Shown here in pieces: positions 7,027-9,776 of a DNA stretch of 32,000 nucleotides. The notes beneath the pieces are model-generated. The model saw only the letters and a program-made list of their open reading frames with translations. It was not told the origin of the DNA and made no database searches. Origin of the DNA: Candidatus Methanoperedens sp. (GTDB lineage Archaea > Halobacteriota > Methanosarcinia > Methanosarcinales > Methanoperedenaceae); assembly GCA_027460535.1 (NCBI GenBank), contig JAPZAR010000024.1, positions 30,001 to 62,000 of the forward strand, read 5' to 3'. A program made the position numbers and the translations under genes. The stretch's first letter is position 1; each line of letters starts with the position of its first letter.

Positions 7027-9045
7027 ATGTCCAACTTCCCCTCAGAAGAACCCGTTCTTGTAACCTGCGGCCTTCCCTATGCCAACGGCAAGTGCCACAT
7101 AGGTCACCTGCGCACCTATGTTCCTGCCGACATCTTTGTGAGAGCACTTAGAAAACAGGGACAGGATGCCGTCTTTATCTGCGGGTCCGATGCCCACGGA
7201 ACCCCCATAGTGGTGAATGCGGAGGAGCTGGGTATTAAACCCAAAGACCTTGTCAATAAGTACCATCAACATTTTGAGAAGATTTTCAAAGCGATGGAGG
7301 TGGAGTTCAACTTCTACGGGAATACTGACTCGCCAACGAACCACGCAAGGACGAACAACATCGTTGAAACTCTTATTGAGCGTGGATATGTTTATCCACA
7401 GATCATTCGGCTGGCTTATTGCCCACATGACCAGCGGTTCCTTCCCGATAGATACGTTGAAGGCATCTGCCCATACTGCGGCGCGGTAGCGCGCGGGGAT
7501 GAATGCGACCAGGGTTGCGGAAAGCATCTTGAACCCGGGGAAATAAAGAGCGCAAGATGCAGGATATGCGGCAACCCTGCTGAGTATCGCGAGCAGGAGC
7601 ATTTCTTTTTCAAACTTTCAGCTTTCGGAGGCTTTCTTTCCGAATACCTGAACCAGCTCGGCGGCACATCCAATGCTATAAACTATGCAAAGGAATGGGC
7701 AAAGGAACTGAAAGACTGGTGCATCACACGGAACCTGGAATGGGGTGTACGTTTCCCGGGGCATGACGACCTCGTTGTGTACGTCTGGGTGGATGCTCCC
7801 ATCGGATACATCTCGTTCACCGAGGAATGGGCGAAAGACAGCGGGAACGACTGGGAAAAATACTGGCGAAAGAGCTCGCGCATAATACATTTCATTGGCG
7901 AGGATATCACATATCATCACTGCATCTTCTGGCCTGCGATGCTAAAGGGCGCGGGATACACCCAGCCGTGGGCAGTCGTTGCCTCAGGCATGCTGAAGAT
8001 TGACGATAAGAAGTTCTCAAAGAGCAGGGGATATGTAGTGTGGGTGGATGAGGACTATCTCGACCACGGTTTCCATCCGGATCTCCTCAGATATTACATT
8101 GCCAACTATACCTCGCATACGAAAGAGTTGAATTTTTCATGGAAAGTGTTCCAGGACAAGGTGAATAACGAGCTTGTGGGAGCGCTGGGGAATTTCCTTC
8201 ACAGGACGCTGCATTTCGCCCACAAGAATTTTGGGGAGATACCTGAAGGCGAAGTGGATAGTGAAATTTTTGAGAAAATCGAAGCAACGATCAACTCTGT
8301 AATACTGGCTTTCGATGAATACGAATTCAAGAAAGCCACCGACGCGATGATGGAACTTGCCCAGTATGGCAATGCATATTTCCAGTCGCATGAGCCTTGG
8401 CAGCTCATTAAAACTGATAGGGAAGCATGCGGGCATGTAGTGAAAAACTGCCTTCAGATAGGAAAGGCGCTCGTTTTGTTGTTTGAGCCTATACTTCCGG
8501 GAAATATGGAACGGGCTTGGAAGCTGCTTGGATTTCAGGGTGACGTCCATTCCACGCGGCTTGAAGATGCCCTCGTAGAGATTCCTGCAGGAGAACTTAA
8601 AGCTCCTGAGATATTATTCACTAAGATTGAGGATAAGAAGATCAAAGAGATGGAGGCGATCCTTGATAGAAGGATTAAGATAGCAATAGCGAAAGAGAAG
8701 AATAAGCTTGAGGCAGGGAAGGAAAAAGCCGAGATCACATTTGAGGAATTCCAGAAGCTTGATATAAGGATTGGAAAAATATTATCGGCTGAAAATATAA
8801 AGGGTTCTGATAAACTGCTGAAGCTTGAGGTGGACATAGGTGAGAAGCGCCAGATTGTTGCAGGGATCGCGAAGTCCCATGCACCTTCCGAACTTGTGGG
8901 GCGTCAGGTTGCGGTGCTTGCGAATTTGAAGCCTGCGAAACTTTTCGGCGTGGAATCCCGCGGGATGATACTGGCTGGTGATGGTGAGGGCGCGGTGCTG
9001 CTGCTGCCTGAGAAAGAGGTTAAGGAAGGGACGAAAGTGAGATGA
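7027..9045 (+). CDS. metG: Methionyl-tRNA synthetase with C-terminal tRNA-binding (Trbp111/EMAPII-like) domain
   Basis: 672 aa. It carries the HIGH motif (CHIGHLRTY), a zinc knuckle (CPYCG...CDQGCG...CRICG), a KMSKS variant (KFSKSRG), and a C-terminal OB-fold block [36 protein letters not shown]. Confidence 0.95.
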
Positions 9046-9061
9046 TTTTTTTAAGACTTTG
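8975..9061. repeat. Direct repeat copy A: metG 3' end, stop codon and T-tract
   Basis: In my manual alignment it matches 9691-9776 at 68 of 87 positions with one 1-nt gap. The identical cores are GTGCTGCTGCTGCC and GGTTAAGGAAGGGACGA. The run of seven T at 9046-9052 directly after the stop is a plausible archaeal terminator. Confidence 0.8.
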
Positions 9062-9064
9062 ATT

Positions 9065-9514
9065 ATGCCTCTTAACTTGTTAACATTAGAAAATCTGTTA
9101 GATATCAATGAGCAGATAAAAATACGTGCTTCAAAAGACCCTCGAATAGAGTACACTGGAAGTGAAGACTATCCCATCAAGATTCGTGAACTTCAGAAGT
9201 TAATCGAACTTACACCGAAGAATAGGGCTGTGGTAGAGATTGCAGCGTATTATCTTAAAAATATAATTCTGTTACAGGCATTCCCGGACGCCAACCATAG
9301 AACAGCATTGACAGCAACGGAAAGATTTTTAGAAAAGAACGGCTACAGCTTCGATTATACGGCTGTAGAAGCATACCAGTTCCGAAAGGAACTCTATACC
9401 AGAAGATTGCAGGAATATGGAACTTATGAAGAAAGACCTACAAGAGTCTTAAAAGAAGCCGATAACCAGGTATTTTCACTATGCCTGGAGTTTGTTAGGG
9501 CGCATATCAGATAG
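9065..9514 (+). CDS. Doc (death-on-curing)/Fic-family protein with a variant active-site motif
   Basis: ATG 9065. The block LQAFPDANHRTALTATERFLEKNGY aligns with the phage P1 Doc motif GHIFNDANKRTALNSALLFLRRNG. The size (about 149 aa) fits Doc. Confidence 0.7.
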   Translation: MPLNLLTLENLLDINEQIKIRASKDPRIEYTGSEDYPIKIRELQKLIELTPKNRAVVEIAAYYLKNIILLQAFPDANHRTALTATERFLEKNGYSFDYTAVEAYQFRKELYTRRLQEYGTYEERPTRVLKEADNQVFSLCLEFVRAHIR

Positions 9515-9515
9515 A

Positions 9516-9656
9516 CTATCCCAACTCCACTAAAACTTCATACCTGCGGTCAAGAATACGATTTATTGCTTGCAACTCAGAGTCTCTGTCGGAATCCTCT
9601 GGTTTTACCATAGCAGATGTAGAGCGAATCCGTTGTTTTTGCTGCTGTTTCGCCAT
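9516..9656 (-). CDS. Hypothetical 46-aa protein, convergent with the Doc-like gene
   Basis: Below the ORF-track size cutoff. Translation is MAKQQQKQRIRSTSAMVKPEDSDRDSELQAINRILDRRYEVLVELG. A TATA-like TTATAAA on the minus strand at about 9682-9688 lies roughly 30 nt upstream of the ATG, a leaderless geometry. No family was recognised. Confidence 0.3.
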   Translation of the reverse strand: MAKQQQKQRIRSTSAMVKPEDSDRDSELQAINRILDRRYEVLVELG

Positions 9657-9690
9657 TGCCTGTACTTGAATTGCATTCTATTTATAATCA

Positions 9691-9776
9691 TTGCTGATGC
9701 TTCGGGCCCAGTGCTGCTGCTGCCGATGAAAAGGGTTAAGGAAGGGACGAGGGTTGGGTGATTTTTTACGACTTTG
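9691..9776. repeat. Direct repeat copy B: diverged duplicate of the metG 3' end
   Basis: It keeps the frame and the stop: ADASGPVLLLPMKRVKEGTRVG* versus met[24 protein letters not shown]. It also keeps the T-tract (six T). The offset from copy A is 716 nt. Confidence 0.8.

Follow-up and report, generated by a model that had tools for sequence, protein, structure and literature searches.

Casposons integrate at the 3′ end of aEF-2, and the integrative and conjugative elements (ICEs) ICESt1 and ICESt3 reportedly integrate in fda of Streptococcus thermophilus and are said to leave cis-mobilisable elements (CIMEs) by accretion. In gene-3′-end islands, ICEs and casposons, insertion is integrase- or Cas1-dependent and is bordered by short identical attachment (att) or target repeats of 14-30 bp. 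Campbell-type integration and homology-facilitated illegitimate recombination (HFIR), the latter reportedly treated for natural transformation by de Vries and Wackernagel in 2002, work instead through a homologous segment shared by the incoming DNA and its recipient. For Methanoperedens, we know of no genetic system or DNA-exchange mechanism that has been established. Here, we describe a locus in a 32,000-nt stretch of DNA (the window), a chromosomal segment of Candidatus Methanoperedens (ANME-2d) with neighbouring genes of housekeeping type, in which the 3′ end of metG, the gene for methionyl-tRNA synthetase, occurs twice and encloses a small cassette of a Doc-like gene and a convergent 46-codon open reading frame (ORF). 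Comparison with related loci, which carry L-numbers below as labels of genome loci or contigs (L025 being Methanoperedens sp. BLZ2), leads us to favour, with moderate confidence, acquisition of the cassette by homologous (Campbell-type) recombination with a foreign metG locus. This was one of two origins offered by an earlier reading made from the letters of the window (the sequence-only reading); the other, an old and decayed integration of an integrase-dependent element reaching to about 10930, was not borne out.

The metG gene (7027-9045, plus strand) is intact by Pfam and protein identity: its 672-aa product matches tRNA-synt_1g (2e-150), has a complete C-terminal tRNA-binding domain (tRNA_bind, residues 580-670) and is 80-90% identical to the metG products of about 40 Candidatus Methanoperedens genomes. 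Its last 23 codons, the stop codon and a 16-nt T-tract/3′ flank (tail copy 1, 8976-9061, plus strand) recur at 9692-9776 (tail copy 2, plus strand), with 68 of 86 positions identical and one gap. The repeat search resolved the match into 76 ungapped nt (8976-9051 against 9692-9767, 79%) and a remainder of 17 nt (9045-9061 against 9760-9776, 82%) past a 1-nt gap in the T-tract; the MAFFT alignment of both tails agreed with it, and BLASTN of the 1.5 kb upstream of the Doc-like gene against the 1.5 kb downstream gave 79.07% identity over 86 columns (E 6e-16) and no inverted match between these flanks. The bracketing duplicate described in the sequence-only reading is thus real, and so are its identical cores of 14 nt (GTGCTGCTGCTGCC) and 17 nt (GGTTAAGGAAGGGACGA), which coincide with the codons of metG that are best conserved in all relatives. 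No genes other than the Doc-like one (ATG at 9065, end at 9514) and the convergent ORF (9516-9656) stand between the copies, as that reading had it. Nowhere else in the 32-kb window is there a direct repeat of 35 nt or more within 5 kb, and chance can be ruled out on this uniqueness, the BLAST E value and the identical occurrence in three assemblies; the two further assemblies (contigs L142 and L143, from two other SRA runs) are 100% identical to the window over 2.0-2.1 kb of the region, which also rules out an assembly artefact.

Copy 2 retains the reading frame and the stop position (tail peptide IADASGPVLLLPMKRVKEGTRVG, followed by the stop codon), as had been claimed, although comparison of the two tails, which the sequence-only reading had suggested for synonymous and nonsynonymous changes, gave nine nonsynonymous and only two synonymous codon differences. 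Several residues of copy 2 are unseen in 40 of 40 aligned Methanoperedens metG tails, at positions that are otherwise invariant. The nonsynonymous excess and these novel states argue that copy 2 is a dead, unconstrained tail, and on the same grounds its frame retention reflects merely that no indel has occurred over 72 nt. That the downstream copy should be functional, either as part of a 63-codon ORF (9570-9761) or as a selected regulatory or terminator element, deserves hardly any credence. The kept frame and stop and the T-tract after the copy would suit such a role, but this ORF starts at a TTG and runs antisense through the conserved convergent ORF (orf46), the same codon differences in its tail part reject it as a coding unit, the corresponding copies in L081 and BLZ2 carry frameshifts and a 9-nt deletion, and L001 has the cassette without a tail copy.

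The DNA that follows copy 2 points to where this copy came from. Window positions 9693-9812 align with the metG tail of L005 and its own downstream flank at 74.6% over 122 nt, with AATTGTCTCAAAA.TACTTTCA common to both, and the native-type flank itself (9777-9812, plus strand, delimited by the L005 alignment) resembles also the metG flanks of L003 and L035. The homology of L001 and L082 to the window stops exactly at 9690-9691. As the sequence behind copy 2 has its homologue in the native flank downstream of metG in relatives, copy 2 would be the displaced resident metG end, a decaying pseudo-tail that its codon differences and the homology break likewise mark out. Much of the divergence between the two copies probably existed already as a difference between alleles or arose as copy 2 decayed, and great age is not required.

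Copy 1, the spacer behind it and the cassette make up a donor-type block (8985-9691, plus strand) that is much nearer to L081 than the metG body is. Over 7027-8975, the metG body, identity to L081 was 82.3%, 80.9% and 83.0%, whereas over 8976-9691 it was 90.0%, 94.4%, 92.7% and 91.5%; the best breakpoint lies at 8986 (Fisher p = 6e-5). Against L001, synonymous codon differences amounted to 36-41% over most of metG, to 27% in its last 100 full codons and to 16% in the Doc-like gene, and the lower synonymous divergence of the latter indicates that the cassette is younger than the split of the lineages. Because of the identity jump near 8985 and the lower synonymous divergence of the Doc-like gene, copy 1 and the cassette appear to have come together from a different lineage, at a time later than the split. 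The alignment of related metG loci that the sequence-only reading had recommended gave copy 1 as donor-type and copy 2 with a native-type flank, and it revealed no integrase element directly after metG in 20 relatives. Two surmises of that reading are in keeping with this: the inserted DNA would have supplied a replacement metG end, the downstream copy being the displaced resident end with its native-type flank, and a foreign metG locus as the partner in recombination is favoured by the contrast between the block (~91% identical to L081) and the metG body (~82%) as well as by the mosaic found in BLZ2.

A metG-tail bracket recurs in two other genomes, with repeats of 212 nt in L081 and 251 nt in BLZ2 (L025). 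In L081, the same cassette, spacer and ...ATCATTG junction follow metG and are succeeded by the 212-nt metG tail copy; copy 1 there ends with a window-type stop and spacer and copy 2 with an L012-type stop and flank, and no clear mosaic between the L081 copies was found beyond stop codon and flank. In L001, the cassette also stands behind metG; its right end there is the canonical one, and no copy of the tail follows. In BLZ2, an AbrB-type gene and a frameshifted PIN gene occupy the space within the 251-nt metG tail repeat (L025, 9772-11142). The nearest relative of L025 is L020, whose metG body is 95.6% identical. Copy 2 of BLZ2 mismatches L020 in 30 of 160 columns on the left and in 4 of 94 on the right (p ~0.001), and in the last 60 nt the differences fall in copy 1, copy 2 being equal to L020. 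This pattern corresponds to the reciprocal mosaic expected of a single homologous crossover. In the window, for want of a close resident-type relative, only one half of the mosaic is visible, namely copy 1 of donor type from ~8985 and copy 2 with a native flank.

Under the favoured reading, the donor DNA would have comprised the metG 3′ end of another Methanoperedens lineage, a 19-nt spacer, the Doc-like gene and the convergent gene for a 46-aa partner. The resident metG 3′ end would have recombined with it near 8985, leaving a functional metG that now ends in the donor tail (copy 1) with the cassette next to it, and copy 2, the resident tail, would have been pushed downstream along with the native flank behind it, to decay as a pseudogene. 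The route could have been a Campbell-type loop-in of a small circle bearing tail plus cassette, or else two crossovers with donor DNA in which the bracket was already present; we infer the circular form of the incoming DNA, the transfer between cells and the order of events. A dedicated integrase would not be required, the homology arm being the conserved end of an essential gene, and once a bracket exists, both of its arms being metG sequence, uptake by any related genome would be possible.

HFIR of linear foreign DNA is another reading, in which homology in metG holds the left end and microhomology joins the right end, at the orf46 promoter, to the resident metG at codon -23. A TTG microhomology can indeed be read at the junction (ATCATTG/CTGATG), and the cassette is metG-proximal with older cargo distal, as this route would leave it. 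Nevertheless, the homologous crossover (~8985) coincides with the supposed illegitimate junction (8976), which is predicted by a tail-carrying circle and not by HFIR, and the ATCATTG junction is also present in L081, so that it was inherited and not newly made; we consider HFIR quite unlikely here.

Insertion in situ with a long target duplication, through template switching, microhomology-mediated break-induced replication or staggered-nick fill-in, would have produced tails that were identical at birth and have since diverged, the survivors in an essential gene being duplications that span the stop. Doc loci at large lend this some weight, as 14 of the 36 with usable flanks are bracketed by direct repeats of 37-212 nt (at least 38 nt in 13 of them) and none by inverted repeats, the repeats belonging to several unrelated families; several of the 14 are orthologous, however, which reduces the number of independent events. 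The window repeat takes in 16 nt of native-type 3′ flank, and the first metG-Doc junction must stem from some such illegitimate event. For the present bracket we still regard this origin as rather unlikely, since copy 1 lies within the donor-type identity block, the L081 spacer before the Doc-like gene is of donor type and the flank of copy 2 there is of recipient type, and copy 2 of BLZ2 is a mosaic and not uniformly decayed.

The order of gene, new tail, cargo and old tail is also what 3′-end-targeting integrases produce, and the bracket could accordingly be read as the remnant of a site-specific integrative element, or as a CIME served by an integrase in trans, with an att site in the metG 3′ end, a replacement tail borne by the element and an integrase that was later lost. 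The identical 14- and 17-nt cores within the repeat, and the overlap of all three metG-linked repeats in the last 69 nt of metG, would fit such a site. Tyrosine-integrase elements are known in Methanoperedens, although the jumbo element described there targets tRNA-Asp only and has 14-bp repeats (PMC13444090). Among the genes checked by Pfam within ~8 kb on both sides of the window locus, all of housekeeping type, no integrase was found, as the sequence-only reading had stated, and no integrase or recombinase lies directly after metG in 20 relatives. The brackets hold just 0.65-0.87 kb, with no recombinase inside, and an insert of that size is much too short to have coded for one. No tRNA or tmRNA that could act as an attachment site occurs in the window. 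Furthermore, the repeats start and end at different positions even around the same cassette (in the window they are 85 nt long and reach 16 nt beyond the stop; in L081 they span 212 nt and in L025 251 nt, both ending at the stop), the crossover region of BLZ2 is broad and not placed at a recognisable core, and the same footprint is formed around a MazEF-like pair in L001 by the tail of another gene, which encodes a 126-aa helix-turn-helix (HTH) protein. With no recombinase among the genes checked, and with no attachment boundaries or crossover core shared among independent insertions, an integrase-mediated element or CIME is disfavoured and judged unlikely; the older idea of a decayed integration up to ~10930 fails on these grounds and also on the separate history of the DNA past copy 2.

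Other vehicles were set aside as well. An insertion sequence, miniature inverted-repeat transposable element or other transposon finds no support in a transposase or, by repeat search, in a terminal inverted repeat at the cassette ends, which by eye share just 7 nt (TGATTAT...ATAATCA) as against flanking repeats of 38-212 nt. An integron cassette was dismissed as no IntI was found and no attC-like structured repeat at the cassette borders. A viral vehicle was rejected on the absence of the Doc family from IMG/VR; the 17-nt metG core matches one giant-virus contig, which was taken as chance.

Several observations weigh against such an acquisition from a foreign metG. The position of the breakpoint depends mainly on L081 as a single donor-like genome and is less clean against L001, to which the tail is just 83-86% identical and the cassette 91%; in the 70-nt tail alone, 63 of 70 identical positions are not significant by themselves. 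The resident allele of the window has no close relative, the best match of its metG body being ~83%. A homology of 86 nt at ~80% identity, with longest identical runs of 14 and 17 nt, is an inefficient substrate for recombination, so that the original homology would have had to be longer or more similar, unless a deletion came later. The window and L081 share the ...ATCATTG junction, yet their second copies start at different metG positions, which calls for an extra 144-nt deletion or for two related donors. The circular intermediate has so far not been observed, and to our knowledge no DNA-transfer route is known for Methanoperedens.

The cassette itself consists of two genes. The Doc/Fic-like gene (9065-9514, plus strand) encodes 149 aa and passes the Pfam Fic cut-off (26.3 bits; cut-off 24), scores 33.7 bits with NCBIfam DOC_P1, under the cut-off of 38.65, and matches a Doc structure in the PDB (9vzc, E 2e-4). 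It aligns around the active-site loop to the P1 Doc motif HIFNDANKRTAL, with LQAFPDANHRTAL replacing the pattern HxFx[DN][AG]NKR, and in this alignment Gln takes the place of the motif His and His that of Lys. The His aligned with Gln is presumably the catalytic H66 of P1 Doc. The motif LQAFPD[AG]NHRTA is invariant in 14 homologues, the precomputed domain of these proteins is DUF8172, and the family is common in Methanoperedens, with 161 matches. With Gln at the position of the catalytic His, the family is doubtful as a kinase or AMPylase, and "toxin" is to be taken as a putative label for the Doc-like protein. The cassette resembles the Phd-Doc type II group but departs from it in the replaced motif, in the lack of an upstream co-directional antitoxin of Phd/YefM or AbrB type and in one of the two curated score thresholds.

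The convergent 46-aa partner gene (orf46, 9516-9656, minus strand), a candidate antitoxin, abuts the 3′ end of the Doc-like gene and encodes a conserved C-terminus, SELQAINRILDRRYEVLVELG. The motif ELxAINRILDRRYEVLVEL is kept in every related cassette examined, with partner lengths of 42-46 aa, and a convergent ORF with this C-terminal motif occupies the same position in L001 and L081-L087, beside Doc homologues down to 65% identity. It is a called gene of 42-45 aa in L083-L085 and L087, and automatic callers often miss it elsewhere; no Pfam or NCBIfam match was obtained for the 42-46-aa partner. Because of the conserved convergent position and the conserved C-terminal motif, orf46 is a genuine gene whose product likely partners the Doc-like protein. 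Its convergent layout is unusual, and orf46 could be a candidate for a new antitoxin type.

The right module boundary (9657-9691, minus strand) is a promoter-like cassette end with a TATA-like TTATAAATA ~25-30 nt before the orf46 start, and we infer a promoter here. Homology of other Doc loci to the window starts at ~9060 and ends at 9688-9702 in all of the ~50 other loci. The canonical right end of the cassette is TATTTATAATCACCGC, and the variant ...ATCATTG is common to the window and L081. Elsewhere the cassette stands, for example, behind clpB or thiC, inside a DndB island or beside other toxin genes, and in L001 and L081 the same cassette stands behind the same spacer after metG. The Doc-like gene and its partner thus form a discrete mobile module. 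Doc cassettes of another subclade (L086/L103, L097, L099-L102 and L104) are bracketed by 110-200-nt direct repeats of two families; by eye, the reverse-strand translation of one family resembles a conserved-region peptide of HsdS type, and the two families change places from one side of the cassette to the other.

Beyond copy 2, the window extends through further cargo to a conserved element (CE, 10817-10925, minus strand, 22 copies), the far edge of a variable region. The CE is ~100 nt long and lies 0-60 nt past the metG stop in "empty" loci (L014, L018, L019, L023, L028-L031 and L036), and it also stands directly after metG in non-Methanoperedens Methanosarcinales (L039-L042). Its core (10837-10875) contains the invariant ATCGGAGGGGATGGATGCGATGCC. 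On the minus strand, it shows a TATA-like box (10897-10911) ~25 nt upstream of a putative RNA, a GGGGC/GCCCC closing stem, a 13-nt invariant loop (CAUCCAUCCCCUC) that contains CCUCC, and a terminal T-run. The CE may be a small-RNA gene of ~55 nt on this strand, its strand and RNA nature being read from these features. A search of Rfam returned no match for the CE, with just a spurious hit (E 0.92) in 8800-11100, and the predicted stem pairs are all invariant, hence no covariation supports them. The first conserved neighbour on the other side is a gene of metallo-beta-lactamase fold (10970-11593, plus strand; Pfam Lactamase_B 4e-36; called at 207 aa in L142), which follows metG and the CE directly in L014, L018 and L019.

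In the window, L001, L005, L017, L025, L034 and L035, metG and the CE are 1.3-4.9 kb apart and the cargo between them is unrelated. Toxin-antitoxin pairs make up much of it, together with an ATPase, a flavoprotein and a large ORF, PIN-like by eye at its N-terminus, that neighbours an ASCH-like gene. The interval from the metG stop to the CE is a recombination hot spot where small cargo genes, many of them toxin-antitoxin pairs, accumulate and decay. In many Methanoperedens genomes (L002-L038), synteny downstream of metG is broken, the CE is absent within 8 kb, and the next genes include tatC and those for phosphoribosyl pyrophosphate synthetase, an aminotransferase and a tetratricopeptide repeat protein, making the metG 3′ end also a frequent breakpoint of rearrangement.

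The DNA of the window beyond copy 2 lies outside the Doc insertion, because it consists of the native flank, an unrelated pseudogene, the remnant of another cassette gene and the CE. The pseudogene (9942-10472, plus strand; ~28% GC), from an ORFan membrane-type protein, would be older, separate cargo; it carries an N-terminal frameshift, an in-frame TAA (10254-10256) and a 21-nt tandem duplication (9965-10006), and its intact homologues, P0121 (213 aa, 80%) and P0122 (217 aa, 74%), are found only on two short metagenomic contigs. The remnant (10674-10810, no strand assigned) is common to L051, L081 and L001 and corresponds to the 3′ end of the 126-aa HTH gene in L001 and L081: window positions 10674-10739 match L081 8318-8382 at 82%, and 10727-10911 match L051 at 80%. 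Protein remnants of the HTH gene are present in L081 and L001, and the window itself has a weak match of 37 nt (E 0.001).

The same HTH gene brackets cargo in its own right. In L001, the MazEF-like pair lies between duplicated 3′ parts of it (11796-12929), and in L081 a HicBA pair lies between 97%-identical remnants of its tail (7434-8517), where the CE also occurs twice (7434-7505 and 8445-8517). These brackets and the doubled CE suggest serial accretion of alleles of the locus. It is tempting, though for now speculative, to propose that toxin-antitoxin cassettes of Methanoperedens are recombinase-free modules bracketed by 3′-end fragments of host genes (metG; the 126-aa HTH gene around MazEF in L001), which would loop out as circles and loop in by host recombination into related genomes, with gene ends as portable attachment sites and accretion on the proximal side. 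If such a tail-bracketed, recombinase-free mode were general, its importance would be the greater.

The metG locus could serve as a sequence-level example of how selfish toxin-antitoxin cassettes spread between archaeal lineages without a dedicated recombinase, with an essential-gene end as homology arm, and it would also illustrate how such a gene can withstand insertion into its coding end. The interval between metG and the CE, a natural gene-turnover hot spot in Methanoperedens, could help in choosing neutral integration sites. Attention is further drawn to a large Doc-like family with an altered active site and to a conserved candidate small RNA.

In the literature, we found no account of toxin-antitoxin cassettes bracketed by duplications of a host gene tail, nor of HFIR with toxin-antitoxin genes, and the locus combines features of several described systems. 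With Phd-Doc of phage P1 the cassette has in common a small protein of predicted Fic/Doc fold and a second small protein in a compact module within variable regions, but it differs in the QAFPD[AG]NHRTA motif, in the DOC_P1 score below cut-off and in a convergent 46-aa partner that is unrelated to Phd. The likeness to Campbell-type integration and HFIR lies in an insert bracketed by the direct duplication of a shared homologous segment, in copies that are, as seen in BLZ2, reciprocal donor/recipient mosaics, and in the lack of a recombinase gene, inverted repeats and a short target duplication; unlike the known cases, an essential aminoacyl-tRNA synthetase gene provides the arm with its 3′ end, which is naturally carried beside a toxin-antitoxin-like cassette, and the events recur at one archaeal hot spot. 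As in gene-3′-end islands and ICEs, the gene end is borne by the element, the displaced end lies at the far side and accretion pushes older cargo distally, whereas the metG repeats are 85-251 nt long, diverged and variable in extent, and no recombinase was found among the genes checked. Finally, the locus resembles integron arrays, in that small promoter-poor or self-contained cassettes, rich in toxin-antitoxin genes, accumulate with the newest seemingly proximal to a fixed anchor.

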